Shown piece after piece: positions 6,910-55,100 of a stretch of DNA of 64,000 nucleotides. Source of the stretch: Raillietiella orientalis (taxonomy: Eukaryota); the NCBI GenBank assembly GCA_036172245.1, contig JAYWIR010000012.1, forward strand, positions 3,224,001 through 3,288,000. The letters run 5' to 3'. Every line of letters begins with the position of its first letter. Position 1 is the first letter of the stretch. Position numbers and translations under genes: made by a program. The notes beneath the pieces were generated by a model, which worked only from the letters and a program-made list of their open reading frames with translations, made no database searches and was not told the origin of the DNA.

Positions 6910-6945
6910 CTACACTTTGATCTTAGCCAAAAGGCCGAGAACGAT
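6910..6945 (-). pseudogene. U2: 3'-truncated U2 snRNA fragment (about nt 1-37)
   Basis: Minus strand reads ATCG-TTCTCGGCCTTTTGGCTAAGATCAAAGTGTAG, the U2 5' end with one deleted base, ending at the branch-point recognition sequence; no further U2 sequence follows. Confidence 0.88.
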
Positions 6946-7035
6946 CCCTTGCCGTCTTCGCTGACTTGGCAGACGGAAGGATGGAGAGCACCCTAGTCCC
7001 GTCTGTCAGAGCAGCGGCTATCCCCGCCGGGCTCG

Positions 7036-7106
7036 ATGGCCTCATCTTTTTTTAAAAAAGGCCAGTAGCGACCCCGCGAGGAGATCGTTACTATGGCCTC
7101 ATCTTT
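7036..7106 (-). mobile_element. 43-bp retro-insertion (hairpin + T6 + short A tail) with 14-bp TSD
   Basis: ATGGCCTCATCTTT at 7036-7049 and 7093-7106. The insert on the minus strand is AGTAACGATCTCCTCGCGGGGTCGCTACTGGCCTTTTTTAAAA. Confidence 0.6.
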
Positions 7107-7920
7107 GGGAGGAGTCTGCGACTCGCTTCTCCTTACTGTCTTCCTCAGTCCGAACCTTTCCGAAAGCGCGCTGCTCGCGGAGCAGGTTCGCGTCGTTGTC
7201 CCGCCGCCTTCCCTCTCCAGCAGTGAGTGGCTGCGGCGAGGGAGGTGAGGGATGGCGTTTTCGGGGGAACCGAAATTTTTGTTTCTTCCTCCCACGATCA
7301 AGAGGAAACCGAGTCGGGGAACGCGTGCTTTTCCCTCAAGCATCTTCCCTCTTTTCTCATACTCACGCCAAAGGTTCCCCCGTCTTCCGACAGATTAAGC
7401 ATCCCGTCTTTCCTCCCTCGTCCCCTCCCCCCCCAACCGCCATTTCCCCTCCCCTCGCGCCCTTCCTCCTCTCTTCCCTCTCCAGAAGATGATCGCGTGC
7501 AACAGTGCGAGAGCGCCAGCGAGTTCGCTCGCATGCGTTCGCAAGGCAGAGCGCTTTTCGTCTGCGGGCTTGGATGCCCCTCATCAGATCAAACTGCTGA
7601 TTGGGATGCTGCTGCTCCGGGATCAGCTCTCTCTCCCAGAAGAAGAAGAAGAAAAGGCTCCGAGTAGAGGAAGCGCTCGTTATCGTCGAATGCTTTGGGA
7701 AGGAAGGGAGGGTGGAAGAGCACGCGGTGGCAACTGTCAAGGAGTGAAGCGTAGGAGGTGAGGCCGTGCACGTGCACAGAAAAACCGTGCGCTTCCATCC
7801 ATCCATCCATCCACTACGCAATCAGCGAATTCGAAAATGCGATTCCATCGTGAAATCAATGGGAATCGTCAGCTTCGCGAGACCGTAACGGAAACGGGAA
7901 GACAAGAAGAAAAAAGAAAC

Positions 7921-7966
7921 GCGCACACACGCACACGCACACATACACACACACACATACACACAC
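7921..7966. repeat. imperfect (CA)n microsatellite
   Basis: Direct reading of the sequence. Confidence 0.9.
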
Positions 7967-35800: not shown

Positions 35801-36760
35801 ACCCGGAGCCGTTCCAGAATTCCCGCCATCTGTTTTCCCTTTCCAGGATCCCCGAACGCTCCCTCTGCCTGAGCTTCGCCCTTGCTCCTTCCTCTCCGCT
35901 CTCGCCTCTTTCTCGAAGGCCGCTCTTCCCGGAAGCCGCACCCGCGCGGGCAGAGAAGTTTCCCATCTTCCACAAGGAGAGCTGGCATCCGGGAGACAGC
36001 GAGTCCCACCAAGGTCGAAGAAAGGAAAGGTGGATGCTGCATGTTTTCCGGGATGAAAGCTGTGTGCGCGATGGAAGGGCCGCCTTCCGGTAGACGTCGG
36101 GAGACCCTTTTTTCCCCCGGGAAAGAGGTCCACACGCCCTCGTGTGTGTCTCGCTCGTTCTCAGCAGCCCTGCAAGGGAAGGCGGGGCGAGGGTTGCTGC
36201 ACCAGCAGGCCTCTAGGTGGCCGCCTTCTTCCGGAGCGCAATCCCTGCCTCGAAACGACACCCCCGACGGTTGGGCGCGCGCGGCCTCCCCAGTCCTTCC
36301 CCTGCGCGAGCCTCTCCTCTCTCCATCCGGGAGCGCTGACTCATCATCCCCTTCGTCTCCTCCTTATGGGAATGCTCGCCGGGTGGAGGCTGAGCGCCGG
36401 CGGAACTCGCGGGCGACGTCTCCTGGAGGGGGGAGCAGAGCTAGCGGCGACCTCCCGTCTCCACGGAAGAGCAATCGCTTGCTGTGCGGGGTCTCCTCTC
36501 GTCCCCTTACCCTCGTTCTTCCTTCCGCCGCAAAGGAAAGTCCCAAGGGAATGGAGATTCGGAGGATCCTTCCCCCCCCCTCCTTTTCTTCGCTTTCCGT
36601 ATTCCCGGAAATTCGCGTACTTCCGGGCAAGGACGCCGATTATCGATCCAGCGGACCTCATGAATAAAACATCCGCGCATTTCGCTGCTCCTCGAATCAA
36701 TTGATTCCCCCCCCCCTCCTTCTTCTTTCCTCTCCCCCCCCTTCCCCACCCCCACCGCCA
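32900..36760 (-). mobile_element. decayed L1/Tx1-type ORF2 (APE endonuclease to RT/thumb)
   Basis: ADVLF/IHEV (DxxxxQE), VWTSFPGEKR, PCGRWE (GxWKxN-like), LLLGTDGHVL..LHRFVRGVG (YADD region), CLPLPHEGSM (LPxxEGGL-like). Confidence 0.5.
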
Positions 36761-37099
36761 CCCCCCGAAACGATCCCTTAATAATGCAGAGCATAATCGA
36801 CGATTATCGCTTCCCGCGCGGCGCAAGCGGTTCCCGCTGCTGCCCTCCCTCCCTCTCCCCTCTCCGGGAGGATCTTTCAGGACGCGTCGCGCAGTCCCTT
36901 CGTCCGCGGGAGGAGGGGAATGAAGAGGGAAGAGGGGCAAGGAACAGCCCCCCTCGACCCCGTCCGGCCCACCGGCAAGAGGAAGGAAGGAAGGAAGGGC
37001 ATCGTCGAGTGGCCAATGCAGACCGCGCAGGATGGGGGGAAGGGGAGACGTGTCCGCCTAAGGTCAGCAGGCGTCCCTCTTGTCCTCCTCCTCGCCGCC

Positions 37100-38850
37100 T
37101 TCACAGTGGTCTCAGGGAAGAGACCGTACCTTCCGGGACGTTCCAGATTTCAGGAGGAGGAGCGCGGACAACACGCGCGCGTCCCTCCGGAGGGAACTAA
37201 GGTGAGGGGAGGGAGAGGACGCGTCCCACAAAGCACAGGAGTCGTCGCAGGGGTTCCCCTCCGGGGCGCGCGCGTGCGCACCTCGGCCGTTGCGACCCGA
37301 CCCCCGAGAAAGCCTCTGCCGTGTGCGCCCCCTTGCGCACAGCGCGCTCCTCCTCCATCCCCACCCCTCCCCTACCTCCAGCGCACTGCGCTGAGTGGGA
37401 AGGAGAGCCTGCGCCACTGGAGGGGAGAGGCACGCCGGAAAGAGGGGGGAGGGTCTTTCCGTGTCCACCCAACGGCCCTCTGGCCTTGAACCCCTTGGGG
37501 CATGTTCCCACCCATCGCGTCCGATCCAGTCGAAAAATCGGGAGGTGGGGGAAGTGAGGGGGCAGGGCGTCAACCTCACTCCTTCCTTGGGGATCCACCT
37601 GTCACCGCCTTTGGGAGCGAACTGCGGCGCTCACGCCTCCCTCTTCGTCCTCCATCCCCCTCCCCGCCACACTTCATCCTCGCGGTCCCCTTCACCGCGG
37701 GAGGACCCAAAGGAAGCGTCAGGATCGTCCACCATCGCGCTACCTCCCATTGCTGGTTTCGGCGGTTTCCCTGGAGGCGACCTCCCTCCCTCCTTCTGGC
37801 CTGCCGAACCACTGAGGATCCGAAGCGACGACGTTTCCCGGGGCAGAGGGGACCGCCTCAAAGCGTGGCGTCCGCGGGAGTTAGGGAAGGGGGATATCTT
37901 CCAGCCAGGTTCCCCCCCGCGAGGGAAGGAGCCCTTGAAAGGGGAAGCCCTCTCCGATGGGGCCTCCATGGCGCCACAAGGGGACCCCTCGAAACTCGTG
38001 GCTCCTGCGGGATGCGGCGTCTCCAGGCCCCTCTCTGCCTTCCGCTTGGAGGATTCTCGGGAAGCAGCGGGGCGGTGGCGGGTACTTCTCCTCCTCCTCC
38101 CCATGAATGCTCCCCTCTGCTCGGCAGGAACGAGCGGACGGAGGGAACGAAGGGTGAGGTCACGTGTGCTCCCCCATGGAGTCTACGAATTTCCGGCACG
38201 CCTCTTCCCGGGAGCGGGCAACCCCACAAGATGGCCGCCTGCTCTCAGAGGGGGGCCGGGCTCGAGCACTAAAGGAGGAGGGGAACGCGAGGGGTGATGG
38301 GAAGAAACGTGTATCCCGTACCCCCTCCTACTTCTACCTACGCTCAGATCCCCCGGAGGCTTTCCCGACCGCAAGTGCGGGCTACCCGTCGCCGGAGCTT
38401 CAGCCAGGAACCGTTTTTGTTTTGCCGCGAAGAAAGTGGGGGAGGGGGAGAGGGCGAGCCGTGGGAAAAAGGATTTGGGGAGAGGAGGGAGAGGGAAGGA
38501 GTTTCTGGCCCCTGCGCATCCCGCGGGGGTTCCTCCAGAGGAACTTCTTCAGGAGAAGGGTTTCCCTGAGGCGCTGGGGAGATCCCCCTTGCCCCCCCTT
38601 CTCGCAGCGGGATCCCGACGGGACTCCGCGAACGCGGGATTCGAAGGAACACCGGAAGTTTCGAGGGGGGATGGAAATCTTCCTCCCTCGGAACCCCTCC
38701 TCCTTCCGGTCCCCCCTCGCTCTCCTGGCTGCGCCACCGCCCCAGGGGAGAAAGGAGGAAGGAACGCGCCTATTCCCCCTCCCTCCCCCCACGGGAACCG
38801 AAAGAAGGGGAGCGGGGTTATGGCTCCTCCCTAGGCGACCCTCCTACGTC
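37100..38850 (+). mobile_element. decayed L1/Tx1-type LINE 3' part
   Basis: PIQSKN, SLGIHL (YLGI), IALPPIAGFGG (LPxxxGGLG), KEFLAPAHPAGVPPEELLQEKGF (zf-RVT-like). Confidence 0.5.
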
Positions 38851-39099
38851 GTTGGAGCCCGGGGAGAGGCGCGCCCTCCTCCCCTCCCTCCGGGGGCGCG
38901 AAGAGACTCTCCTGCCCGCTCGTCCACGGAGCAGTCGGAGGGGGAGAAACGGAGGAAAGGTGGCGGTCCCTAAGCAGCTCAAGACGGGGGAAGGTCGCGG
39001 CGTCGCGCCCCGAAGTCCTGATCCCTCTGTCACCTATCCACCGGAGAGCACGGAAGACCTTCCTGAAGCCCTCCTTCCCGGGACGGGCCTCCGTATGCA

Positions 39100-39950
39100 G
39101 GGCATCCAGCGAGTGCGCGCTTGTCTGTTTTTCCGGAATCCCCTTCGAAGGGCAGGGAGGACCTCAATGGCCCCCCACCACTGGCGGCGGCCAGCGATGG
39201 GGGACGCTCTCTTTCTGGGCGGGACGTCCCGCCTCTCGAGCGGTCCCTACAGGGGGGTGGTGCATCGTCCTGTGCAGCTCACGCGCCCCCAGCGCCGTCT
39301 GGTCGCGAGCCCGGGAGAGAGAACGAAGCGACCCGGGGGAAGACTCTCTCGCATGGTCTGTCCTCGAGAGGTCGAGGAGCCTACCCTGTGGACGGAGTTC
39401 CTGGCGGCTACGATGGACCCCAGCCCGCCTCCGAAGTGGAAGCTTGCCGAGCCCGGGCGTCAGCAGCTGCCCCGACCCTCTCTCGGGGCGCCACTGTTGC
39501 GTCAGACCAGTCGACGACGACGACCAGCCGGTGCAGACGCGAGCGCGCCTCGTCTCGGGAAGCGCTGACCTCGGGGCGCAGAGACCGGGACCGAGAGCGA
39601 GCAGCGCCGCGGCGACCAAGCTGACGGACGGAAGCGACGGGACCGACCGGCCGGCCGCTTGGACTCCGCCTAGGCGCGGGTCCCACTGCCAGGAGGGAGC
39701 GCTCAGCGCGGAAGGGAAGGCGGGGAGGAGGAGGCAGAGGACCGGGCTGCTTTTGGACGACGACAATCTCGAGGTGCCCCCTACGCCCTGTGGGGAATGC
39801 CGCCTTTGCAGACCACCCTTGCGAGTCCCCACGATTCCGTCTGGCTCTTCGGCATTGCGGAAGCCGCCGCGCTCGTTCCCACGTGGAAACGCGCTGACTG
39901 GCGGCGCAGGCGCGCCCTCGTGAGCCCTGGGCACGTGAGGGCGAAGACGT
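39100..39950 (-). mobile_element. possible decayed L1/Tx1 ORF1 remnant
   Basis: GLGSIVA..TMRESLP..GRVSCTGRCTT resembles the ORF1 pattern YGxV..MxxxxP..VxYxGQxxxC; weak. Confidence 0.25.
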
Positions 39951-40249
39951 TAGGGTAAGTGGGATGGGAGCAATGGACGAGCAGACAGGACTTCTGCTTT
40001 GCTCCTCAGGAAGCGCAGACGGAGCTCCGTTCTTGCTCGGAGAAGGACGTCGGAGGACCCCGAGCGCCTCCGACTTCGCCGCAGAGGGCACGCTGGGAAG
40101 AAGCGGCGGTTACCAGGCAATGCTGGGAGGAAGCCTTCGAGGAGCCACGCGGGAGATCCCGGAAAACAAAGTGGGGGAAGAGGAGAGGGAAACGCGCGCG
40201 CCAAGCCGGGACGCTGCTCCCGGTGCGCACGCGGTCGCTCTGGAGGCGG

Positions 40250-41600
40250 CCGGGGGACGCAGCACGAATTTCGCCGGGACTCATCTCCGGGCAAAGATTG
40301 TAAATCTCCGGGAGCTGGCCCTAAATCAAAGGGATGACGTGTCCTTCGTCGTTGCCGGGAGCCGGAGGGGACTCGTGGACGTGCGCTTGTTCCTCCTCCC
40401 TCCTCGGGAGAGCACTCCCTTGTTTCCAGGCTGACCGTAGGACACTTCGGGCTCCGGGGAACGTCGAAGGATGATGCGGGGGAGGGGCCGAAGAAGTGCG
40501 GAACCGTGGGAAAAGAGGGGGTGGGAGCTCATCGCCTCGTTCTCGGAGGTTTCCCATCAGATAACAGACCACCTTCTCCCTCTGCGGATGGTGGTCGGTC
40601 ACCCAGGTGGCCGCCACCTCCGGCATTCGCCTTTTGACGACCCGATTCCCCTCCTTCCCTCCCGTCCTCTGTTGGCTTGCCGAGCAGGCGGATCGCAAGA
40701 GAGGAACGCGCGCGCCAGCGCAGCCGCGGGGGGGGGCACCGACTTACGGAAACCCCCGCAGCAGTCGCTCCGTCGTGCGACCTCGTTGAAGCGGCAGCGG
40801 CGGCACCGGAAGAGGTGGTGCACCCCTGCGCCTCCTTCTCCAGCTCGGTCGCCCGCGGAGACTGCTCCCTCCCCGCTCTCCTGGTCGCTTCGGCGCGACT
40901 GCATTGACCGCACCCGGGTCTCCAGACCCTGAGGTCGGAAGCGACGGGGAATTCCCCGATTTCTCCCCAAGGGACGGCACGTGCCGCCACTCCTCATGAG
41001 CAGTCATGCCTCCGCCCTCGCAGCAGCCCCTGCGGTCCTCCGCCCACCTTTGGAGGGCAACCCGCGGAGTTTCGAGGCAGGTCGTCTTGGAGAAGCCCTG
41101 TCCAGACAAGCAGGGACAGTGACCTTTCCTCGAAAGACCCGGGTGTCGGCGCAGGCAATGCCCAGGGCGGAGCAGGGCCTCCCTCTCAGACGAGTGAAGG
41201 GAAGGAAGGTGTGCAGGTGGCACGGAGAGGGGGGTGAATCCCGAACGCTTCCCTGTGCCTCCAAGCGCGCTCCGCGGGGCTCTTCGCTTCCCGAGAGCCC
41301 TCCGTGCCCCGTTCCTGCCCTCGTGTGACGCGATCGGAGGGTACCTTGCAGCTTCCTGCAGCGGGTGGAGCACCCGAAGGGAGGGATGCTGGTGCCCGGG
41401 AGCAGCCGCCCAAGCGCGCTGCCGGAGGGGAGAGACAGACCAGGCGGGCGGAGGCCCCGAGGGGTTGCTGACGACCGTTTGCTGGAGAGGCACCTTCACC
41501 AAGGGGGAAGCTGAGAATTCCTTCCAGAGTCTCCCCTGCTCCAGAGGTCGGAGGGTCAACCACAGAGGGGCAGCCTTCCCTCCCAGGGACCCGCGGGCGG
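40250..41600 (-). mobile_element. decayed LINE APE endonuclease fragment
   Basis: GEIGEF (GGDFN-like) followed by TWVTDHHPQREKVVCY (DxWxxxHPxxxxxTY-like). Confidence 0.35.
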
Positions 41601-42071
41601 GCCGTCGAACGCCTCGAGTTCCCGCTGATCTCTCGGAAGATCCTCCTTCCCCTGATACCTCCTTCAGGAGGATGGGGGGGATCGCTTCTTCGTCTTCCCC
41701 GCCCCTAGTAGTCTCTTCTCAGCGCCCCTTCCCGCTCCCCGGTGGAATGGGAGAGTTTTTGCCCTCTGGTGCCCTCCCCCCCACGTGCAAGGACAAACAG
41801 CTGCACCCCTTCCCCAGTCTCTGCTCCCCACCCTCCCGCTCGTCCCCAAGTCTCATTTTCGCTCGGATCTGCCTCTTCCTGGAGGGAGTCTTCGGTTCCG
41901 CTCGAGCGGCGGTGGCGTCGCCGCCTCGGCAATAAGGACACGGGCTGCGGGAGGGGAGGAGGAAGCACAGAGAAGGGTCCCAGGAAAGGAAGTCTTGGCT
42001 TCCTTTCCCGAGACCAACCACCCCTTCCACCACCCTGAAAAGGGATTTTTTTTTTCTTTTTCTTTTTTTTT

Positions 42072-42244
42072 TTTATTTCGCAGGGCACATCACAGATGGC
42101 GCACGAATACAAAGGGGAGGGGCAACCTGGAGCCCTCCTGGGTCGACACAGAACCTACGCTATGACATCTCCGGCGCCCCGCGGGCCGGGCCCGTCGTTC
42201 CTTGTCGGGCCCCTTCCCGGCCGACCGCGGAGCTCCCGTTTATT
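42072..42244 (-). terminator. candidate scratch polyadenylation signals
   Basis: AATAAA on the minus strand at 42244-42239 and 42077-42072, about 700 and 870 nt after the stop codon; both are next to genomic A-tracts. Confidence 0.35.
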
Positions 42245-42942
42245 GCTTTGCATACCCGGCACCTCTCCTTCTTCCTTTTTCCCCCTTTTTTTCCCCCCTT
42301 TTTTTCGCTTTTTTTTTTTTTTTCTTCCTTTTTTTCGGCCCTCCTCCTCGCCCCAATGCCACCCGCTTAGCACGGGGGGCGCCGTGGGGGGCGGTGGGGG
42401 GCATGAGATCATCGTGAAGGCCGCTGGAGGCGAGCGCAAGGAGGCAGCAGCGGCGGGCGGAGGAGCGGGCAGGGGAGGAAAGGAGGCGCCCTCTTCGGGG
42501 AAGTGGGGGCGGGCGGAGGAAGCGGCTTTTCCCCGAGGCTGGGAGAACTGCCGCTGCAGGCTCTCTCAGGGAACGGGACGGGAAAAAGAGGGGAGGGAAG
42601 GGGACAGCTGCGCCGACCGGGAACCGCCCGTTCCATCCGTGGCGGTGGGGTCGACCCTCTGGAACGCCTCCCTCCTGAGAAGGGAGAGCGGCTGGAATCC
42701 CCTCGGCGGGGTTCGCTTCTCCCGGTTCCTCCGGGAGGATGGGGAGGGGAGTAGGTGGTTGGAATGGGAAGATGGCGCTCGCCTCCTCCCCCGCGCGGGT
42801 CCGCCGCAGCCGCCCAGGACGGAAGCGGGGCAGCTCGGCAGCAGCGCCCATGGCGCCGCCCTCTTCTCCCGGATCGAAGATGAAGATCGGCGTGTTCCCG
42901 CGGCGGGAGCACCCCGCGGTGCTGGGCGTCCCTTCCTCGCCC

Positions 42943-44210
42943 TCACTTGCAGCCCTGGTTCAGGGAGCGGGGTTTGGGCGCCCTGACGGCAGCGGGCGGC
43001 GGCGGAGGGGCGACGGAAGCGTGAGTGGCGTCCCGGAAGCAAGCGGACTCGTAGTGCTTGTTGAGGTACGCCTTGAGGGCGAAGGCCTTGTCGCAGCGGG
43101 CGCAGCGGTAGGCCTTCAGGGAGGAGTGGGTCTGCATGTGGGCGCGCAAGTTGGAGCGGTCGGCGAAGGCCTTTCCGCAGTGGGCGCAGCCGTAGGGTCT
43201 CTCTCCCGTATGGGAGCGCAGGTGCCCCTGAAGCAGCCAGGGCCTGGAGAAGGCCTTGCCGCACGTGTCGCAGCGGTGGCTGAGACTGTGGGTCAGCAGG
43301 TGCATGGACAGGGCCGGCATGGACACGTAGGTCTTGCCACACACGGGACACTTGCGGGCGGACTGGGAGTCCAGGGAGCGGTGAGTCTGCTTGTGCCGGG
43401 ACAGATTCGAAGAGGTGGCGTAGTGCTTCCCGCAGTCCGGGCATGAAAAGCGGCACCGCTGCTGCTGCTGCGGCGGCGGCTGCTGCCCAGGGGGCGCCGC
43501 CGCCGCCGCCGTCGCTTCCCCGCGGCGCTTCGAGCGCCCGTCGCTCACGAAGAAGCTCTCGTAGGTGTAGGCGACCGTCTTGCTCTTGGGGGGACGCTCA
43601 CCAGGTTTCCGCCGGGGCGAAGGAGGCGGCTTCCGGTGGTGGTGCGGTGGCGGCTGCAGCGCCCCGCCCTCCGAAGAGACGGGGAGGGTGGCGCAGGAAG
43701 GCGCCTCCAAAACTCCCAGCGCCACCGTCGCCACGTCCGTGGCGGCCGCAGTGGCGACCAGGCAGGAGGACGGAGGGATGCCCTTCAGGTAGTGCGCGCT
43801 GGCGCTCAAGTCCAGGATGGCGTGGGCGACGTCCTCCTCGACCCGCGTCTGCGGGTGGATCTCCGGTGGCGGTGGCGGCGGCGCCACCGGGGTCGCCGCC
43901 GCTAGCACCCCGCTGCCGTCTCCGAATGGGAAGTCCAACCGCCGGTTCCTGCGATGGAGGTGGTGGTGGTTGTGACTGTGGTGATGGTTGTGGTGGTGGT
44001 CCACGAGCAGCGTCTTCCCCAGCCTCGGACCCGCGTCCTGGTCATCGTCGTCGTGCTCCTCGCCCTCGTCTTCGGGGCACCTTCTCGGAGACGGGGACGG
44101 AGAGGGTGTCGGCGGGAATCCCAGAGGCTGGCAAAAGGTCGCGACACTGGTCAGCGAGGAGTACACGGCCTCATCCTGGAGACCCGGGTCGTCCCATCCT
44201 CGGAAGCATT
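42943..44210 (-). CDS. scrt: scratch-family transcriptional repressor, coding exon 2 (SCRATCH domain, 4 C2H2 + terminal C2HC zinc finger)
   Basis: Acceptor CCCTGAC(branch A at 44228)..CCCTTTCCTTCCAG|AATGC joins in frame (..QK-E-CFRGWDD). Contains the SCRATCH motif AYTYESFFVSDGRSKRR, an ILDLS CtBP-like motif, and fingers CPDCGKHYATSSNLSRHKQTH, CPVCGKTYVSMPALSMHLLTH, CDTCGKAFSRPWLLQGHLRSH, CAHCGKAFADRSNLRAHMQTH, CARCDKAFALKAYLNKHYESAC. Spliced CDS 1545 nt = 514 aa + stop. Confidence 0.95.
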
Positions 44211-44296
44211 CTGGAAGGAAAGGGCCGTCAGGGAGACAAAGACGAGAGGATCGGAGTGCCTGCCCCTCCGGGCGGCCTGTCCGTTCTGGAACATCC

Positions 44297-44437
44297 CAGC
44301 GAGAGAGGATCTTAGCCAAAAGGCCGAGAAACGGCCTTTTGGCTAAGATCGACAGAGCATCAGCCATAGCCCATCATTAAAAATGTAGTGTTGCAACCTT
44401 TTCATTAATAAAAATCTGTTCCTATCAGCGAGAGAGG
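44297..44437 (+). mobile_element. U2 snRNA-flanked short retro-insertion with 12-bp TSD and 5' inversion
   Basis: CAGCGAGAGAGG at 44297-44308 and 44426-44437. Inside: revcomp of TTCTCGGCCTTTTGGCTAAGATC (44308-44330), CGGCCTTTTGGCTAAGATC (44332-44350), 64 nt ending AATAAAAA (44351-44414), then TCTGTTCCTATCAGC (44415-44429; U2 reads TCTGTTCTTATCAG). Confidence 0.8.
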
Positions 44438-44449
44438 GAGAGGCCAGCT

Positions 44450-47200
44450 GCCGTGGCAGGCGAGCGAGGAGGCAACCAACCATGGAGATTCCGGCGTCGA
44501 AGGGAAGAGAAAGGAGGGGGGGAGCCGATGCTGCCACCAATGAGCCGATGAACCATGCTTGCCGCCCTCTCGGCATCATAAGGAACATTCCGGAAGCTGG
44601 CGATGCTGAACGAAAGGCGAGGCGATGGGCAGCGGCGCCCGCACTGGCTGCTCCGAAGGGTGGCAGCTTTCGGTCGCGCAGCCACCAGCCGGGTTCGAGA
44701 GGTTCCAGCAGAGGAAGGAGAAAGGGAATGGGGGCAACAGCGGATCCACCAGGAAGCGGGCGCGAGGCGCGTTCGCCCCCGGTGGCGACCGACCGCCTCC
44801 ACCTGACGAGCCACCATCCGCCTCCGAAACGAGCCTCCCCTCTTTCCGCGGCGGGACCTTGACCATCCAGGAGCGAACAGGGGAGGTTGTGAAAAAGGTG
44901 GGGGCAGTCTGGCATCGTGGAGGCCGGACAAACGAGCGCCAAAAGCGATGGTAGTGCAGAGCCCCTCGCGTACCCCGGAAGTTTACCGCACAACGGGAGC
45001 GGCGGAGGGAGACCAGAGGGAAGGCAGACGAGAACGACTCGGTATGCACCCTGGAACCCCTTTCTCCCCCCCCCTCCCTTCCCTCCAGAGAGGTCGATCC
45101 TCTCTCTGAAAAGAGCGAATGTCCCCGGGAGTAAATCCCTGACTAATTCCGCCAGTGAAGAGTTCCCCTGGACACGGAAGATTCGTAGCATCCCGCGGTA
45201 GTAGCAGTGGAGATGGTCGCGTCACTCCCTCGGGAAGAAGCCGGCAGAGACCGCTTCGCACTTTCCACGAGGCACCAGGACCCCTCTCCTTTCCTCCCCT
45301 CTGTCTTCTCTAGAGGGGCTCGATGCAAGGTGAGCCCAGCAGGAGCAAGTGAACCACCCCGCCCCAGCGAACAAGTCCCTGTTAGGAGGGTGGAAAGGGG
45401 GAGGTTGGCTATTCCCTGGGAACACTTCCGCTCGCTCGTCCGTCCGAGCTGTGCTGATAGACGAGTAGCGTCGCAACTGCCACCTTCCGGGCTGGCCTCG
45501 AAGGTGGCAAGGGAGGGAGCGCCGCCTGTGTTTCTCTGGCGACCGTTCGGCGACTTTCGATCCTCCCTACTGGTTCCCTCCCCTCGGGCCCGACGGTGGC
45601 GCCGCGGAGAAGCCGGGTCCCGCCTGCATGCATCCGAAGAGGGGCGGTCGGAAACGCTCAGGAGGGGAGGGAGAGTGGGGGGGAAGAGACCGCCCCTTGG
45701 GACGCTGCGAAGGCAGTGCGTCCTCGATGGGGGACTTCTTCCCGAGGATCTTCCTGCTGGGGTGCAGCCTCCCGTCTCCCTCGCCAAAGGTCCACAGGTC
45801 TCTGGGCGACCGATTGACCACCCTTGGTATCCCAGACGCTCTTCCCCCTTTGGTTCCGCTTTACCCTGGGTAGGGGAAGACCATTTCTGGAACCGCCGTC
45901 CTCCTCGCCAAGGTGGCGACGTCTCGGTCCTGGCGACGGGAGTCCCAAATCGGTCATCCCTCCTCCTGTCTTCCCCCTGAGCTGCCACCTTCCGAGGCCA
46001 CGCGCGAGCACCACCGCGAGAGCACAGAGCGATGTGCCTGGCGATTGACCAAAAGCGCGCGATCCCCTTCGGCATGCCATGTCCCTGGACGCCAGGAGGG
46101 GGAGGAAGGGGGAGGTCAGGAACTGAAAAGAAGCCCCGCCCTGGTCGATAGGGACTTCCGGAAGGAGGGGATGGGAAGGTTGAGGTCGAGGGACCGCGAA
46201 CTTCCCGGAGGAGGGACGCAGAGGGGCTCCTGGACCGCACTGAGAAGATGAAGGAGGGAGACAGGCTGGGCCACCAACCCCACACGCTAACGCGTGACCC
46301 CCACCGACCTCACACTTGCTCCTGCCCAAGAGCAGACCTTCGGGTCCCTTCACCTCCAGGATGCTCGCGGCGAAGTAGCGCCCGCCGCGTGCACGAGGGG
46401 GCATTGGCACGAGCACCCGCTGGGAGAAGGTAGGGCCACATGCCCTGCTGCTAGGGGAGAGGCCGAACCGCAGCATCGAGTTAGCTGCAGGGAGGGAGCG
46501 CCTCCTCCGCGAGGGTCGCAGCCACCGTCGCCGGCGGGACTCGCGCGAGGACACCGGGGCGTCAGTCGGGCACCTGGGTGGGGAAGGTCGCCCGGGAAGG
46601 GTCATTCGAGGGACGAGGAGGAGAACACTTCGTGGGTACGAGGCCGGCCCGGCTGGCTAGCGAAATCCCAAAGGAGAGCAAAAGGGTCTCCCTCCTTTTG
46701 GTGGTCACGTAGCACTCCCAGTCACCCCTTCTCTGTCTCCTTCGACCCAGGGAACGCCATTCTTCGGAGGCAAGGAACAGAGAGCGGACGGTTGCGCCTG
46801 GACGGAGGTCACACTTGCAGCTGACATCGCTCTGGCGCTGAAGGATTCCTCTGGCACAGGGCCTGCATGGTTGCGTGGGCGACTCGTTACCCTTCCACCT
46901 CTACAACCCGGCCCTATTGTCGCGCTGCACCCGTTCGCCCCTGCGTCAAAGACCACCGGGACGAAGGATGGGCGCACGCGGGGGGGCACACTCTTCCGCT
47001 CGCTCCCCCCCCCCGCCGCCGCCGCTGGCTAAGTCGCAGGACGGGAGGGAGCGGAGTGAGGTGATGAAGTCGCCTCAGGAGGTGTCACGGGACCTCCGAC
47101 TCCTGCACGACGTCGACGGTCCGGCGGCATTCCGAACGCGACTGCTCCCCCTTCGAAAAGTAAGGAATTCCAGCCTGGCTTTTCGAGCACCATCTTCCTC
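44450..47200 (-). mobile_element. decayed L1/Tx1-type LINE within the scratch intron
   Basis: GWSIGR (LSxxGR), CLRSVPRGGLFPP (LPxxxGGL), LPLCGK..SLLALVCPA (C-terminal finger), in order. Confidence 0.5.
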
Positions 47201-48802
47201 ATCCCCCTCTTTCCGTGTGAGAGAACGGGAGTAGGTCGCGAAGGCGCGAGACGCATGCCTCCGGCGGACCCTTGGGCGGCCGCCCCGGTCCGAAGATCTA
47301 CGCAGCCGGAACCGCTTTCGGCTCCATTTCGCTCCCTTTGGCCTGGCGCCGTCTCCAGTGCCAAGGGGAGCGGCAGAGACGCGACTTCATGGCTCCGCGG
47401 ACGGAACTCGATTTGCCTGTAGGGCATCCATCCATCATCCTGTCGCAAAGGCACGGTGCCGCAACGTACGTGGACGCTGGGTCGAGGAGGCCAGCGCACC
47501 GCGAGGAGGCGCACGTCTCCGGTGGCGGTTTGGTCGGAACTGGCGGCACGTCCGGGTGGCGACCGCCTCGGCCACACAGCGGCGCGGCGAGGACGGGAGC
47601 GAAAAAGTCCGCGCGGAAGGGCCCCGCCCCTCCTTCCGGGTCGCCAGAGGAAGGAGAGGGGGCGCTTCGTGTAATTCTCCGCCCTCCCCCATTTCCCTCG
47701 CCGAGCTCTCGCCTCGCAAAGAGTGAGGGAGGCGGGCAACGCCTGCGCGCACATAAGTCGCCGCCGTCAGGCCTGCGAGAACGGCTGGGGGGCTGTCTCC
47801 AGGTAACCAGGGACGTCCACGTAGGTAGACGAGGCTTCACTTTAAAAAAAAAGGACCATCTCTTTATCCTCCCCCCCCCCCTCTCCCTCCCTCCTCCCAG
47901 AAAAACAAAATTGGGTTTTGAGGGAGCGCGTGCGTGCGTGTCTTCCCAACTTCCGGGAAAATTGGCAGTCGCCCGGCATGGGTGAGGGAAGACCCGCACG
48001 CGCGCGCCCCTTTAGCCGGAGGTCGCCGCCGCCGGCCGAAGTCTCCGGAAGGCACGTCCAGGAGTGCGTCCACAAACGCCACGTGACGTGCACACCCCGC
48101 GCGCGCGGTCCACCAACGGCAGCACGTGGCGCAGGGGGCGACGCGACGCGCGGACCCCGTTTACGGGCGCCGCGGAAGACGATGAGGAGGGAGGAGGAGG
48201 ACGAGGAGGAGCCAGGAACCTGTCGCTATGGAAACTTCGCATGGGGAAAGAGAGGGAGGGGGGGAGGGAGAGAAGGAAAAAAAGAAAACGCTGCTGCCAG
48301 CGGGAACACGAGACGCGAGCGGCCTCGGTTCCAGAGGAGGTCCCGGAACAGAAGACGAGCTGTAGCTTTCCAAACATCTTCGCGGGGAAGGAAACGTTTT
48401 CTCTCCCCCCTCCCCTACCCCTCCCCTGCCCACGAAGCGCTCGCGCGTGCGCGAGGACGGCAGCGCGGCAGTCCGGGGCGCGCCATGTCGCAGCGCCGCC
48501 GCGCAATCCCGGCCGCTGTGCATCCCCGTGCGCACGGGGTGACGCAGGACGTGGCATTCGACCGGAGGTTACTGCCCTCCGGGGCTCTGGTCGGCGGACT
48601 GGCGGACTAGACATTCGCGGCCACCACGGAACGCGTCTGAAGAAGGAGAGGAGAGCGTCCCCCCACAGCGGACGGGGTCGGTGGGCCAAGCCTCCCCTTT
48701 CCTCCCGCAGGGGGTCGTCTGGGACGGGAGAAACAGGTCGAGAGATCCCTCCCCTCTCCTCCCCCCTTCGCCACACGCGTGCGCGCGCGCGACCTGCCTG
48801 AC

Positions 48803-49079
48803 CTTTCTGCAGGGCGGCGGTGGCTGCGGCCGCGGCGGCGGCCGCGGCGGCGGCTTCCACGGGTTTGACGAGCAGCTGGTGGTGGTGGTGGTGATGGTGG
48901 TGATGATGGTGGTCCACGTGGGCGCTGCTGGGTGCGGTCTCCGCCTCCGTGGGGCTCGAGGGAACGTAGCCGGAGGCGCTTCGGCTCCCCGGGCAGAAGG
49001 ACGGGATAACGATGGGCCTGTCCCGGGCGCCGGCCCCCTGCTCGTCGGCGACCTTCTTCACGACGAAGCACCGCGGCAT
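48803..49079 (-). CDS. scrt: scratch-family transcriptional repressor, coding exon 1 (SNAG domain, poly-His, poly-Ala)
   Basis: ATG at 49079 (AAGATGC) begins MPRCFVVKK, a SNAG motif. It is followed by an 11-His run and an Ala run. Donor AAG|GTCAGG at 48803/48802 leaves phase 1, matching the acceptor at 44211. An alternative phase-1 donor CAG|GTCGCG lies 9 nt further (48794/48793). Confidence 0.88.
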
Positions 49080-49124
49080 CTTCCCGCGGGCGGGTCCGCG
49101 GTACTGCGGCGGCGGCTCCGCGAG

Positions 49125-49166
49125 TCAGGCCCGGCGTCGCCGCCAGCAGGGACGGCGGCGGCCCAT
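49125..49166 (-). other. upstream ORF in the predicted scratch 5' UTR (MGRRRPCWRRRRA*)
   Basis: GCCATGG at 49166, TGA at 49127-49125; same frame as the main ATG and stopping 45 nt before it. Confidence 0.5.
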
Positions 49167-49219
49167 GGCTCCCGCGCTGCTCCCGCTCCTGTCCTGCGCG
49201 TGATCCCTGAGGACGGATG

Positions 49220-49257
49220 GAGAATGCATGCGGAGCATCCGGTGTTTTCCCTTATAG
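49220..49257 (-). promoter_or_regulatory. candidate scratch core promoter (TATA-like + Inr-like)
   Basis: Minus strand CTATAAGG, first T at 49256, exactly 31 nt upstream of the A (49225) in an Inr-like GCATTC. This gives a 146-nt 5' UTR. Confidence 0.5.
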
Positions 49258-50949
49258 AACATCACGGCAGGCTGCGCGCGCACCTTCCGCAATTGATCCC
49301 CAGCCCCACTTGTCGGGGTATTAAGGACGGGGACGGTGGCGGGAACCGTGATCGCTCCCTCCCCTTTCCTCCCTCCCCATCCCGGAAAGAGGGAAGAAGG
49401 GAGAGAGAGGGGAGAAGAAAAAAAAAAAAAAAAAGAAAACGAAGGAAATCGGGAGGGGAAAGGGGGAATCCCTCGGAGGGACGAGAGGTCGCCCGCTTTC
49501 GCCCTCCTCCATCCTGGCATGGGTGCGCGCGCGCGCGTGCCCACCCATCCCAGGGTGCCCAACACCGAAAGCGACCGACCCCCTTGCGCCATCCCCCACT
49601 TCTTCCACCGGGAGAGGGGAGGGAAGGAGAGGAGTAAAAAACAAAGGCAAAGAAGAGGAAAAACGCCGGCGGGTCGACTCGACCCAAGAGATGTCCAGCG
49701 TCAGGTCGCGTGTCCTTCCGTCCCAGGAGCCGAGTCCCTTCCGGCTGTGTCCCTTCGAGCCCCACGGAGGCGCATGTGGACCTCATCTTCCTCATTCCCC
49801 CCGCTTCTTCCCTCGATCGCCTCTTTGGCAAGGAAGGGTGTGAGGAGGGAAGAAGGGAGCTGCGCCCCTCGCCGAAAGAGCTGCGCACACGTGCCCTCAG
49901 GAGGAGGTGAGGAGAGAAAGGAGGAAGAAAAAACAAAAGAAAAAGAGGAAAGGTCACGTTCACTCCCTTTCTCCTTCCTCCCTTCCTTGCCGGGCAAATC
50001 TATGGAGCAGCTCCCTCCTTCCTCCTCCCCTCACCCTTTCCTCATCCCCCATTTTTTTTTCCTTTCTCGCTCTTCGTTGGTGATGGGGCGTCGGTGGGTC
50101 CGCGAGAGTGCCCGACGCTGCCGCTGCAAACTGGACAAGCCCTACTGTCGCCCCAGGGGCTCGTTTGGGGGAAAGAAGGCGGAATGGGGGGGGGGGGAAA
50201 CGAGCAACGGAAAAGACTGGCAGCGACAAAAGGGAGCGAAAGGAAGAGGAGGGAGAGCGGTGCGGTCTTGGGGAGCGTCATGCAGGCCCTCTCCGGCGTC
50301 AGGGGCCGACCCATCCCCGCTTCCTCCCCATCTCGCGATCAGTGGGGACCCTGAGGAGGTGCTCCAGGAATCCCGCCCGCCCTACCTCCGGATGAGAAAG
50401 CAAAGCTGCCCCCTCCCCTCCCCCTGCGCCCGCCCGGCTTTGCCTGCCCTCGTCTGGCGTGGCGCCGAGGTCGCCGCCGTGCAAGAAGGCCGTTGCGTGG
50501 TTACCGGCGGGCTTCGTCGATAGCCGGCATTTCCGGTTCCGGCGTGCCCTTCCTCGCGAGCCTTTCCTCGTGGAGGAGAGCCAGTGGCCCCTGCCCCTGG
50601 GAGAGCCCTTACGGAAGCGCGAGAATGGGGAAGGGAAGAAGACCGGGAGGGAAGTGCCAAAGAGGGGGAACAGCGTTCGCGTCCCCTCGGCCGCCCCTTT
50701 CGGCCCTTCCCTCCCTCCCGCAAGAGCCCGTGCTGGTCGCGCGAAGTCGACGCAGGAGACGAGAAAGGTCTCCGGAATCCCGGAGGAAAAAACGGGAGGG
50801 AAGAGCACTGGAAAAGGAAGGGTGAGAGGACTCCCACAACACTTCTGCTGCTGCTGCGCCGCAACATTCCGGCCGCGTCCGGCACCATCCCCGATGCGCT
50901 CGGGGAGGGAGGACGAAGAAATGTAGGGGACGGGGGGGGGAGGGGTAGG

Positions 50950-52150
50950 GAGAGAAGGAAGACGACGACGCTTCGCTCTTCCCTGCTTCCGCTGGTCCGA
51001 AGAATCCCTTCCGGCCAGAGGTCAACAGAAGAAAGAAGAGGTCGTGGGACCCGAAGTGGCACCCCACGAGAGAATAGGCGAGGATGCCTCGGGAGCGTTC
51101 CGGTGAGACCAGGCCGAACGAGGATCCCAGCTAGTGGAGGGCCACATCCCACTGGCATGCCCCGCTATCCCCCAGAGACGCTGCCACCGTGGCGTGCCTG
51201 TCTCTGAGCGCTTACCCGTGGTGCCGGTCGAGAAAACCCGGAAGGATGGAGGAGACCTAGTCAGTCCAGCGAACAACGTGCTCCCGCGGGAGGGAAGGAC
51301 GAGGAGGGACGGGAAAAGGAGAAGAGGAGGAGGAGGAGGAGGAGGAGGAGGAGGGAGAAGAAGAAGGAGAAGGCGAGGGGCCGCTTGGGATCGCGGACAC
51401 CTCCTGATCGGAGAGGAGATGCGTATCCCCCAGCATCCCTGGAAAAGCGGTGCTCGCGGGATGGCAGTTGCTCCCGCTGTCCCCAGAACAAAGGCACCAG
51501 CCCCCCGTGGGGGGTAGATGTGCACGAACGAATCCTCCTCCCCGCCTTCGCGCCACCCCATCCCACCCCCATCCGCAGATTATCTCTATCCTCTCCCTTT
51601 CTTCCCCTCTCCCTCTCCTACTCCCCTGAGTTGCGCTCGCCTCTTCCTGCAACCGCGCGCTCCCACTGGAAAGCTGCCGCACCAGACCAGGGCACCACAC
51701 CCAGGAACGAAGGCGCCGCACCAAAAGCCGGCTGGTCGAGCCCTCCGCAGCAGCTGCGCCACGGACCGGCCCTCGTTTCCTTGGGAACGTGGCGCCCATC
51801 CGAACGCACGCCGTCCTGTGCTCACCGGGTCTTTGGCGAGAAAACTGGCGGTAGTCTCAAGGAGGAGGAGGAGGGGAGCAAGAAGGGGAGGAAGGAGTCC
51901 TTTGAGGAATTCCTCGCGTCTTCCGAGAAGGGTCCCGTGCAGGTGACGGAGGCTACCACAGGGACCCGATTCTCCTCCCACTTTTCTTCCCCTTCGAGAG
52001 AGCACCTTCCGCAGCAGCCGTCCGCCCCGAGGATTCAGGAACGGCCCCTTCCCTGCCACTGATGCGGATGGCAGCGCCTACCGGCGGCGTGCCCTCCAAA
52101 CTGGGAGCGATGACGACGAACGACGTGCTTTTTCGCTGCGAGCACACGAA
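50950..52150 (+). mobile_element. decayed LINE APE endonuclease fragment upstream of scratch
   Basis: RGVPVSERL (GVAI-like), LLIGEEMR (IGGDFN-like), GVDVHER..IRRLSL (DxWR..RLD), SHWKA (GxWK). Confidence 0.4.
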
Positions 52151-55100
52151 CCCTCCTCCCCCGGGCTGCTACTGAAGGAAGCTGCTGTCAGGCGCGGCGA
52201 CAGCGCTGTATGGGGCGGAAAGGGGAACAGGAGAGAAGAGCGGCGGCCACGTTCGCCACCCTCTCGTCAGAACGGAGGAAGCTTCCGAAGCAGAGATGGC
52301 GCAAGGGGGCGGCAACAGTCCTCAAGCGCTTCAAGCAGTGGGGCGGCAGCTCTGGGCTGGTCGGCCCGTTATTCACTTCCAGCGCCGCCTGCCGAGGCAA
52401 AAGGGAAGACTAGGAAGAAGGAGGCACCTGCGCTCCTCCGCGGCGCCACCGCCACTTCTCACGCGTACCAATGGCCCTTCTTCCCAGGTTCGCTACGCCC
52501 GTCTGTTTCCTCTCCCTGCGCGGCGCCCTCCCCTGCCAGACGGCGCAGGAGGGCTCACCCCTGAATCGGAGTTGCAGGATCATCGGACGCCCTCCCCGTC
52601 CGCTTTTTGGAGAGCAGCGCGCCATGCAACGGCCGGGACGGCGACGCCGCCCGCGGCATGATGTCACCGCGCTCCAGCCTTCGCGGAAGGACCAGCCAGG
52701 AGACGCAGCGTTCCTTCCCTTCCTTTTTTTTTTTGCCTCTGTTTCGTGGACGTGCTTTTGGCGTGAGGAAACTTTGCCTGGTAACGATGGGAAACAGTGA
52801 TGGATGGCAAAGTGTCCGTGGCGAGGATGAAGCGGTGGTCATGAGCGACGGCGGTTACGGTAAACAGGCAGGAGGAGGAGGAGGAAAAGCTTCGTCGTCG
52901 GACTGAGGAGGAGGCAAAGAGGCCGAAAAACCCGGCAGGAGGATGGCAGAGCGGAAGAGGAAGGACGCCCCACTCGCTATGCGGCGCGCGCGAAGGGGGT
53001 GAGGAGAGGGGGCGCATGAGGGGGCGGCAGATCTTAATGCGCCTACCCCGAATCCTCGAAGGCAACAAGCAAGCAGCAGCTAACTCAGAAGTCGGTCCCG
53101 AGGATCCTTGGAACCGCCATCGGCGAGCGCGCGCGCGAGGGAGGCTGGATGTGAAGTCCCGCGGGCTTCCGACAGTGCATCCGCTCCCTGCGCGGTGCAG
53201 TGCGCGCCGATCGGATTCGGATGCGAGAAGGGAGAAGGACGAGGAGGAAGGGGGGGGGGGGGTAGCGGCGACCAAGAGTGGCAGCCTTCTCTGTTCGAGG
53301 GTCCTTCCGATGCCAGGCATCCCTCGCGGCATGCTTATCCGCTCTTCCTCCCCCTCTTCCACCGCCACAACACCGTGCAAGCGACAACCCCCCGAGAGAG
53401 AGATCTCTCCGCTTCTCCCGGTTGCACCAAGCGGCCAAGAGGGAGGAGGAGGACGCGCGCGAGCCACTCGATCGTCGCCGCATGGCTTGTCAGTTGCATG
53501 CGTGCCAGCGCCGCCGCCTGCCTGTCCGCCGCGGCTATGCGCGCTCTCCCCCCCCCCCCTCCCCTTCTCCTCTTTTCACGGAAGCTCGGCAGCGCGCGCG
53601 CTTCCACGGAGCGTCGTCGCCTTCCGTCCTGACCGGATGAAAACAGGACACGGAAAGCAATTTTCCCACGAGGACCCATGTGTCAGAGTCAAGGAGCAAT
53701 AGTACATCCTGTTCGGAATTCCCAGCGAGCGGCGCGCGTTTCTTCCTCAGACGGGTGACGTCACCTTCTCTTTTAGCTTGTTAAACAAGGAACTTTATTT
53801 GCTTAGATGAGTGCAGCCCAAAAATGCATCTCGTAGGAAGACGAGAGGAGGAAGGACAGTGGGAAAAGCGCGCGCCGGTCTTGGATGGATGCAGGCACCA
53901 TGTGCACGCACACACGTACACACACGTACACACACTCACGAGTGGATGCAGAGAAGGAGCGTGCGAGAGAGAGAAAGCGGGAGGGAGGCAGGCGGGAGTG
54001 GGAAAGGCGATGGAATCGAAACCTGAGGAAGCAGGAGTCCGTTGCCTGGAAATCGCTGCTGTTGGGTCAACAAGAACCGGAATCGTTAAGGACAAAGCGC
54101 ACTGCGAACCGCAGATCGATGTGAGTGCATCCGCAAAGATGCGGACGGAGAGCTGGCTGGCTGGCTGGTTGGCTGACTGTCTTTCGGCTCCCGCACTCCC
54201 CCAGACGTCGTCACAGCAAAACTCTTGAGGGTGACGAAGGGGACGCAGACGGGCAAGAGGGAATTTCGGGATCCCACGCCACCTCGCTGCTTGCCCTGGC
54301 GCTCGCGACGTAGATGCGTGGTGATCCCGTCTCAACCGGAGCGAAGGCATGTGGGGGGGAGAGGGTAAGGGGAGAGGAAGGCACCTCCGGTCCCTACAGC
54401 GCTTGCTCGGAGTCGCCCCCGAATGAAACCTCTCTTGAGCTCGCCAGACGGGGACGGCGCGCACTCCTGGCATCCCCCTTCACCGGCCCCAGGCGGACCG
54501 GTTTTCTCGCGCACGAGGCCGCGCCCCATGCGACGCATTTCCTCGCCTCGCAGCTAGGAAGGGAGGGACTCCCGAGCGCGTTCCCGTCCCGGAGCGCCTC
54601 CCTCTTCTTCCCTCCCTACTGCGAGGCGCTCTGCGCGCAGGCCACCTGTCGCTCTCTCGACCCGCGCGCGCACGCGGGGTTTGAGGCGGCCACCCCGAGA
54701 CGGATTGGCGGCGGTCGCCTTCCACCTGGCGGCATCGGTACCTACGCACTCCCACCTGGTCTCTGGCACCGCGGACAGCGTTAGGCGGGAGCACGCACGC
54801 GTAGACGATGTGGCCTTCCGTTTCGGGATCTGCTCAAGGGACAGCGGCCCTCCCGTCCGGTTCGCATACGCGGCAGGTGCGCTTTCCGGGGAACGCGCTC
54901 GTTCCGTCCTTCCGGGAGTCCCCCTAGGACGACTGGGAGCATGCCTGGATGAATGGGTCCCACTGCAAAGCGCTTCCGCGTTGTCTCTTCCCCCCAGGAG
55001 CCACACGGCGTCGCATCGCCTTTCCTCCCTGGCAGGTTTCCTGGGGATTTTTCCGTAAAATGCGGATGTGGGCGCTCCCCCCTCCATCCACACTCAAGAG

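Follow-up and report, generated by a model that had tools for sequence, protein, structure and literature searches.

The 64-kb stretch of DNA analysed here, the whole of which is meant wherever we refer to the window, carries on its minus strand a gene for scratch, a Snail-superfamily C2H2 zinc-finger protein, and in the first intron of this gene an insert of 117 bp in which pieces of U2 snRNA sequence, one of them inverted, are combined with 64 nt of non-U2 sequence. A second fragment of U2 is present elsewhere in the window. The features are as follows, with the evidence by which they were placed in brackets.

44297-44308, plus strand: left copy of the target-site duplication, CAGCGAGAGAGG (exact-match count against shuffles)
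44309-44333, minus strand: inverted U2 segment, the reverse complement of which is U2 nt 3-27 (Rfam numbering)
44332-44350, plus strand: direct U2 segment, nt 10-28 (motif search, inverted-repeat search and folding)
44351-44414, plus strand: non-U2 core of 64 nt, 34% GC, ending in AATAAAAA and standing in place of U2 nt 29-38
44415-44428, plus strand: U2 nt 39-52, TCTGTTCCTATCAG (motif search, Rfam numbering and published junction)
44426-44437, plus strand: right copy of the target-site duplication (exact-match count against shuffles)
42943-44210, minus strand: exon 2 of scratch (domains, homologues and splice model)
48803-49079, minus strand: exon 1 of scratch, MPRCFVVKK..., with a SNAG-type N-terminus (tblastn and splice model)
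6906-6945, minus strand: a further, independent orphan piece of the U2 5' end, covering nt 1 to about 39 (motif search, Rfam and alignment)

The scratch gene and the insert in its first intron

A minus-strand ORF at 42946-44373 carries C2H2 zinc fingers, and among named relatives the best are scratch proteins of arthropods; there were 2179 matches at E <= 0.001 among the 8000 candidates scored, and in an alignment of 10 sequences conservation extends from about EEDVAHAILDLSAS to the C-terminus. Comparison of 13 homologues with the window by tblastn placed a SNAG-type N-terminus (MPRCFVVKK...SPTEAETAPS) at 49079-48927 on the minus strand, albeit with weak E-values of 0.055 (P0013) and 6.3 (P0003). 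This first exon ends in a phase 1 donor, AAAG/GTCAGG, the last exonic base being 48803, and a pyrimidine-rich, frame-keeping acceptor, CCTTCCAG/AA, is predicted with its AG at 44212-44211; splicing of exon 1 to 44210 yields one open CDS of 514 codons. Third codon positions have a GC content of 0.88 in the first exon, and of 0.80 and 0.89 in the two portions of exon 2, whereas in the same frame upstream of the insert GC is flat across the three codon positions (0.63/0.70/0.62), as it is in the rest of the intron, and this contrast supports the two-exon model. Judged from the scratch gene, the host looks arthropod-like, in agreement with the preliminary description of this locus.

The insert lies in intron 1 of scratch in antisense orientation, 99 nt upstream of the predicted acceptor and outside the coding sequence; it is without evident function and is probably neutral. 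An in-frame ATG inside it (44367, minus strand) was taken by ORF calling as the start of the zinc-finger ORF. The true gene appears to begin with an exon 4.6 kb upstream that is spliced to the zinc-finger exon, so that the ATG in the insert misleads naive ORF callers. We also considered that the insert might interrupt a coding exon or represent an introner-like new intron, but we rejected this in view of the intron-like flat GC and the phase-compatible acceptor at 44211/44210; the open frame of 636 codons that results when the insert is removed in silico is an artefact of GC-richness.

The insert itself (44309-44425) is flanked by a perfect 12-bp direct repeat, CAGCGAGAGAGG, at 44297-44308 and 44426-44437. 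This sequence occurs exactly twice in the window, compared with a mean of 0.04 in shuffled sequences, and none of 100 shuffles contained two or more matches. In composition the insert is a foreign body, AT-rich relative to its surroundings, with 39% GC (34% in the 64-nt core) against 67% and 65% in the 500-bp flanks. The preliminary description had made out the 12-bp duplication, the 117 bp that it brackets, the inverted and forward pieces of U2, the 64 nt and the restart of U2, and all of these are indeed in place.

Towards its left end the insert contains an inverted repeat with arms of 19 nt (44308-44326 and 44332-44350) that are 100% complementary and separated by a gap of 5 nt, and when the insert is folded as RNA it reaches -37.7 kcal/mol (z = -6.57), a stability equalled by none of 200 shuffles. 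In U2 coordinates the inverted and direct arms overlap by 17-19 nt. A hairpin of the miRNA type was considered and rejected: canonical precursors are longer than this stem of 19 bp and its 5-nt loop, and Rfam gave no match. A DNA transposon or MITE was rejected as well, including Dada, a DNA transposon that targets small RNA genes: the ends of the insert (ATCTTAGCC... and ...CCTATCAG) are not mutual inverted repeats, and the only strong inverted repeat is the internal one at the left end.

Microhomology is present at all three junctions. At the 5' junction it amounts to 1 nt, G44308, the last base of the left duplication, which can also pair with C44350 (U2 nt 28); at the inversion junction the two arms have CG in common at 44332-44333, as had been pointed out previously; and at the 3' junction the last 3 nt of the U2 piece (CAG) overlap the right copy of the duplication. 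For the last of these an overlap of CAGC had been claimed, of which the CAG stands, and the overlap becomes 4 nt if the species' own U2 reads CAGC. The inverted arm ends at U2 nt 3, two bases short of the U2 5' end. The insert has no A-run at its 3' end; the one that it contains is internal and directly precedes U2 nt 39. No difference between copies was found at the approximately 30 duplicated positions (12 in the target duplication and 19 in the hairpin), an identity (P = 0.045 at 5% divergence per copy) which means that the event is young or that these positions have been lucky.

Since perfect hairpins can come from library artefacts, an error of assembly or sequencing, such as a chimeric or palindromic read, has to be weighed. 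Such an artefact would not, however, make a perfect 12-bp duplication around a structured three-part insert derived from U2, and the window does not contain a single N; we find this explanation scarcely credible.

U2 fragments in the window

The relationship of the arms to U2 is well defined. The 17-mer GGCCTTTTGGCTAAGAT, from stem-loop I of U2, has three matches in the window when up to two mismatches are allowed, all of which are exact, against an expectation of 0.00; two are the inverted pair within the insert, and the third is at 6920-6936 on the minus strand. Positions 7-26 of the Rfam U2 model (RF00004) align to 44329-44310 on the minus strand with 20 of 20 bases identical, although the score of 19.5 bits (E 0.11 in a 551-nt search) is well below the gathering score of 46. 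At gathering thresholds Rfam gives no match in the whole window, which bears out the earlier statement that the insert lies outside any U2 gene. The insert is a fragment of U2 and not a U2 gene, with nt 29-38 replaced and nothing beyond nt 52 of about 190.

The 3' piece requires somewhat more care. TCTGTTCCTATCAG is the only match in the window to a 14-mer U2 motif, with one mismatch, and a match at up to two mismatches is not rare in itself, given that 24 of 100 shuffles had at least one somewhere in the window. What gives it weight is that it has a single mismatch and follows the direct U2 arm on the same strand, some 65 nt further downstream; the probability of finding it by chance at such a position is of the order of 1e-5, by hand arithmetic that assumes uniform bases. 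An Rfam search with the 51-nt 3' piece alone gave no U2 match, as the piece is too short.

The U2-derived sequence, some 40 nt in all, departs twice from a near-invariant Rfam consensus, with T in place of C at nt 5 in the inverted segment and C at nt 46 in TCTGTTCCTATCAG, where U2 has U. Set against the approximately 30 duplicated positions that have remained unchanged, these departures suggest a variant or pseudogene-like source, and are a weak hint that the copy was degenerate, although both variants may be normal or specific for this lineage.

The fragment at 6906-6945 scores 30.5 bits with the Rfam U2 model (E = 4.3e-4 when 1 kb was searched and 0.0052 when 12 kb were searched). Its similarity to U2 ends at nt 38/39; next come about 59 nt of GC-rich, unrelated sequence and then A6. 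The sequence beyond it is unrelated to the 64-nt core of the insert, the U2 head alone being common to both. We found no target duplication for this fragment, there being only non-adjacent 7-9-mers in common between its two sides, no 3' half of U2 within 12 kb, and no reverse transcriptase (RT) nearby in a scan of ORFs in 1-9000. Its break is nevertheless a hint that it represents the complementary half of the same nt 38/39 interruption, in support of an interrupted U2.

The 64-nt core and the U2 insertion site

At the junction AATAAAAA/TCTGTTCCTATCAG (44407-44428) U2 restarts at nt 39 by both Rfam and published numbering, and this is the 3' junction used by the retrotransposons Utopia and Keno. 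As described by Kojima & Jurka (2015; PMC4640811), both have one precise 3' junction with a U2 flank from nt 39, and the downstream U2 fragment in their example begins TCTGTTC; insertion just before TCTGTT had been correctly stated in the preliminary description. In the same account Utopia has a restriction-like endonuclease and is related to NeSL, while Keno has an AP endonuclease and belongs to the Tx1 clade; the 5' junctions of both vary, and the arthropod Utopia insertions presented there are without target duplication in U2 and leave U2 nt 1-38 intact upstream. The insert resembles these elements in that its internal junction, AATAAAAA/TCTGTTC, coincides exactly with their 3' junction, and in that it lacks U2 nt 29-38, a variable or deleted 5' side being typical of them. 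It differs from them in being only 64 nt long between the U2 pieces, without an ORF for RT or endonuclease, and in its location outside a U2 gene; moreover, unlike arthropod Utopia, it has a 12-bp duplication, at a site that does not resemble U2.

Utopia is reported from 21 arthropod species in that survey, and Keno only from frogs, fish, lancelet and hydra (Kojima & Jurka, 2015; PMC4640811), which makes Keno an unlikely source and Utopia the arthropod candidate. The earlier proposal that the source was a U2-targeting element is supported in one respect, as U2 restarts at nt 39 and the second fragment breaks at the same point, and weakened in others, with Keno unlikely and the core unmatched.

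We propose that the core represents the 3' tail of a non-LTR element that is specific for the U2 site and has lost most of its 5' part. Only one copy of the core is present in the window, and no Pfam domain of an RT or endonuclease was detected among the 142 ORFs of at least 160 aa in the whole window, nor among those of 70-159 aa in two regions, 64 in 1-9000 and 113 in 36000-53000, out of 455 ORFs of this size in the window as a whole. A 19-mer spanning the junction of tail and U2 gave 28 loci in metagenomes, none of them a true match; they are chance matches, since the flanks are unrelated in 28 of 28 and U2 does not continue. One 24-mer of the core had no match in prokaryotic genome contigs, and another had none in viral contigs. 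An internal U2-like patch, AAATGTAGTGT (44381-44391), which would imply an element of 23 nt with the two flanks of the Utopia site on either side of it, was dismissed as not significant: there are 2 matches in the window against 2.6 expected, and its alignment to the other U2 fragment was equalled by 1408 of 5000 shuffles, that of a 14-nt sub-query by 349 of 5000.

A stretch of 16 nt in the core (44387-44402) is 88% complementary to the nearby exon at 44133-44148, which would be in keeping with an origin of the insert as filler, copied at the DNA level from a U2 locus during repair of a staggered double-strand break, whether by microhomology-mediated template switching or by hairpin capture, and with no RNA intermediate. 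The microhomologies at the junctions and the fold-back inverted duplication are likewise marks of microhomology-mediated repair. The complementarity to the exon was, however, judged to be a chance match, with E ~41 at the scale of the window, and its two mismatches would have to be explained by CpG decay when four other CpGs, in the duplication copies and hairpin arms, have not decayed. Repair normally copies nearby DNA and not a distant U2 locus, the end of the inverted arm at U2 nt 3 fits run-off at the 5' end of an RNA and not an arbitrary DNA template, and duplication of 12 bp of the target is what target-primed reverse transcription typically leaves. We therefore consider DNA-level filler very improbable.

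Proposed retroposition of U2 and origin of the insert

Three routes of snRNA retroposition are distinguished by Kojima (2015; PMC4494074), yielding 3'-truncated, tailless copies with a target duplication, template-switch chimeras, and A-tailed copies, respectively. Tailless retropseudogenes of tRNAs, snRNAs and other RNAs are known from work on mammals and L1 (Schmitz et al., 2004, as cited in PMC4494074 and PMC2912911), and any non-coding RNA is said to be able to yield tailless retrocopies in the summary of Kojima (2010; PMC2912911). The insert has the features of a tailless snRNA retropseudogene, namely a U2 sequence that is truncated at nt 52 on its 3' side, no terminal A-tail, a target duplication and 3-4 nt of microhomology at the 3' junction. 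It differs from such retropseudogenes in that the template was not a plain small RNA but a chimera of U2 with 64 foreign nt, in that its 5' end is inverted, and, in comparison with the mammalian L1 cases, in its arthropod-like host.

The inversion has a counterpart in twin-primed, 5'-inverted LINE-1 insertions, the original description of which is reportedly that of Ostertag and Kazazian in 2001. The insert, like these, consists of an inverted 5' and a direct 3' segment of one RNA within a duplication of normal length, and twin priming is the mechanism to which this arrangement points. Microhomologies are attributed to twin priming at the 5' junction, the 3' junction and the point of inversion in the summary of Kojima (2010; PMC2912911), and the insert has them at all three, which supports the earlier suggestion of twin priming with microhomology. 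Unlike twin-primed LINE-1 copies, the insert is only 117 bp long, has a small RNA as its template, and has arms with an overlap of 17-19 nt that pair in a perfect hairpin.

The reading that we favour, to which we would give about an even chance of being correct, is that the insert was retro-transcribed from the RNA of a U2 gene in which a tiny Utopia-like remnant was lodged, and that its synthesis was target-primed and microhomology-primed and was accompanied by a twin-priming inversion. The restart of U2 exactly at nt 39, following a foreign segment that ends in A residues, is the hallmark of a U2 gene broken by an element specific for this site. The putative source would be a U2 copy in which a U2-site-specific non-LTR retrotransposon, in an arthropod a Utopia-like one, had left a very short, A-tailed piece of its 3' end in place of nt 29-38, and this interrupted copy would have been transcribed from the normal U2 start site; an inverted arm that extends to U2 nt 3 is what a template RNA with the genuine U2 5' end would be expected to give.

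In such a scheme the target would be nicked on both strands, 12 bp apart, and the bottom-strand 3' end (...GCTG-3') would anneal to CAG(C) of the transcript, U2 nt 50-52(53). First-strand synthesis would thus be primed without poly(A), in 'tailless' fashion, and would proceed across the tail segment into U2, copying nt 28-10. The 3' end of the top strand (...GG-3') would serve as primer for another cDNA, starting at U2 nt 28 and stopping at nt 3, near the 5' end of the RNA, and the two cDNAs would be joined at the CG microhomology; this constitutes twin priming, although a snap-back of one cDNA would give an identical product. Between 12-bp duplications, the product would run from U2 nt 27-3 in inverted orientation through U2 nt 10-28 in direct orientation to the 64-nt tail and, finally, U2 nt 39-52. 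The RT could have been supplied in trans by any LINE, or it could have been the U2-specific element's own enzyme, acting off-target on a co-transcript. Several points count against this reading. The cDNAs of twin priming classically overlap little, and here they would overlap by 17-19 nt; the sequence past the fragment at 6906-6945 is unrelated to the core, and no RT or endonuclease was found in the ORFs scanned; and the absence of U2 nt 29-38, unlike the intact nt 1-38 upstream of arthropod Utopia, means that an extra deletion of the target must be assumed.

Chimeras of snRNAs and LINEs that arise by template switching, of the U6-L1 type, provide the basis for a different explanation (Buzdin, 2002; Garcia-Perez, 2007, as cited in PMC4494074). 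An RT at a staggered break could have copied nt 52-39 of a functional U2 snRNA, jumped to the A-rich end of an unrelated RNA for 64 nt, and returned to U2 nt 28-10 before the inversion, giving a patchwork without participation of a U2-specific retrotransposon, in which the break at nt 39 would be a coincidence or reflect stalling of the RT in the heavily modified 5' region of U2. Template switching onto snRNAs during LINE retrotransposition is established, U2 cases included, according to Kojima (2015; PMC4494074), every junction has microhomology, and the window has neither an RT element, among the ORFs scanned, nor a matching tail. The fragment at 6906-6945, with U2 nt 1 to about 39, 59 nt and A6, is itself best accommodated by the classical layout of an snRNA/poly(A)-RNA chimera. 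The insert, however, departs from one-jump chimeras, in which the 5' part of an snRNA is joined to the A-tailed 3' end of another RNA, in that U2 restarts after the A-run, and a patchwork would need three to four switches within 117 nt, which is a lot. It would also require that two independent U2 fragments both break within 1 nt of the published Utopia/Keno site; the A-run is exactly at the junction, as for the 3' end of an element; and the departures at nt 5 and nt 46 are not expected of a functional snRNA unless they are lineage-specific. On balance we think a patchwork of this kind unlikely.

The combination of a U2-derived head with non-U2 sequence is also reminiscent of SINEU, a group of crocodilian SINEs with heads derived from U1 or U2, of which SINEU-3 has two U2 fragments with an internal deletion (Kojima, 2015; PMC4494074); their restriction to crocodilians had been given correctly in the preliminary description. 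SINEU are mobilized by machinery of the LINE type, as the insert would have been, and in SINEU 5' snRNA sequences have been added recurrently by template switching. They are, however, multi-copy families with shared bodies, whereas a single copy of the insert is known, in an arthropod-like host and with an inverted head, and in it an A-ended tail precedes the 3' piece of U2, the two meeting at the Utopia/Keno site.

In a further reading the insert would be one member of a dispersed, multi-copy, U2-headed SINE-like family, derived from an interrupted U2 gene, consisting of a U2 head, a tail from the element and a short 3' flank of U2, and mobilized repeatedly by the U2-specific element or another LINE. 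U2-headed retroposons do exist, as SINEU demonstrate (Kojima, 2015; PMC4494074), and the insert has a small-RNA head and a target duplication, together with an A-ended tail that may be LINE-like. Two U2 fragments broken at nt 38/39 in 64 kb without a U2 gene are compatible with such a family and, from this one window, may hint at many U2 fragments in the genome. Against it, the core is single-copy in the window, the fragment at 6906-6945 has the U2 head in common with the insert but not the body, and the inversion of the 5' head suggests a mishap during a single integration and not a heritable master copy; furthermore, a U2 retrocopy would usually be transcriptionally dead because U2 genes have external promoters, an argument made by Kojima (2015; PMC4494074). 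We regard such a family as distinctly unlikely.

As far as could be tested within the 64-kb window, the insert is a single event, and it looks like a real, though probably one-off, by-product of retrotransposon activity. Returning to the interrupted-U2 reading, we see the insert as a well-preserved retro-insertion that would combine known processes, a tailless snRNA retropseudogene with a twin-priming inversion, on a template scarred by a U2-specific retrotransposon, an interpretation whose prospects of being right or wrong seem to us evenly matched. Read in this manner, the one event would document, in a non-mammalian animal, that transcription from the U2 start apparently persists in U2 copies broken at the Utopia/Keno site, and that poly(A)-independent 'tailless' priming occurs together with a 5' inversion of the twin-priming type, both of which have been described mainly for mammalian L1.

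It is decidedly doubtful that dispersed, non-autonomous, U2-headed retroposons arise from Utopia-interrupted U2 genes and are spread to non-U2 sites through microhomology by the machinery of the element. A literature search by title listing found no snRNA-headed SINEs in arthropods, and if such a dispersed family were real it would be the first snRNA-headed SINE-like family outside the crocodilians, extending retroposons of the SINEU type to arthropods, and would offer a route by which a strictly site-specific retrotransposon could leak from its target into the genome.

The scratch gene and its neighbourhood

The insert, a 117-bp rearranged copy of U2 (44309-44425), lies antisense within the first intron of scratch, a gene whose two exons are separated by 4.6 kb and each encode histidine runs.

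42943-44210 and 48803-49079, minus strand: the two exons of scratch (Snail superfamily)
30371-30490, plus strand: strongly AT-rich island (23-35% GC) within an ORF matching PF16870
26714-27416 versus 29151-28484: inverted repeat of about 700 bp (69% identity, E 1.5e-74)

In a plain ORF listing, the zinc-finger ORF of scratch begins at the ATG at 44367, inside the U2-derived insert, and automated annotation could therefore assign the scratch protein a false start at this codon. The ORF around the AT-rich island matches PF16870 (E 2.9e-19), the C-terminal domain of 2-oxoglutarate dehydrogenase, and the island's flanks are about 60% GC; it is an AT-rich exon amid GC-rich surroundings, the reverse of the scratch exons (GC3 0.8-0.9). 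Self-BLAST of the window gave the inverted repeat as its sole sizeable repeat.

Composition of the insert core

The 64-nt non-U2 core, or tail, of the insert (44351-44414) contains a short repetition.

44372-44384 and 44403-44415: imperfect 13-nt direct repeat, CATCATTAAAAAT / CATTAATAAAAAT (85% identity)

A weak patch resembling U2 nt 32-39 follows the first copy, and U2 from nt 40 on follows the second; the repeat may hint, albeit with no statistical support, at two tandem tail remnants. Sixteen nucleotides of the core (44387-44402) are also 88% complementary to a segment of scratch exon 2 (44133-44148) 240 bp away. Both mismatches are CpG-type transitions. With E about 41 at the scale of the window, we judge that the match is probably due to chance, but it may, less probably, derive from a template switch to the local transcript.

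U2 fragments without a U2 gene in the window

A further fragment of U2 is present near the start of the window.

6906-6945, minus strand: orphan piece from the 5' end of U2, spanning nt 1 to about 39 (RF00004, 30.5 bits)

It breaks at the Utopia/Keno site (U2 nt 38/39, the 3' junction common to these U2-specific retrotransposons), and is followed downstream, to about 6840, by some 59 nt of unrelated GC-rich sequence and then A6. A target duplication, a reverse transcriptase ORF and the 3' half of U2 were sought near this fragment, and none was found. The 64-kb window holds two orphan U2 fragments that break at the Utopia/Keno site and no U2 gene, which suggests that fragments of U2 may be numerous across the genome.
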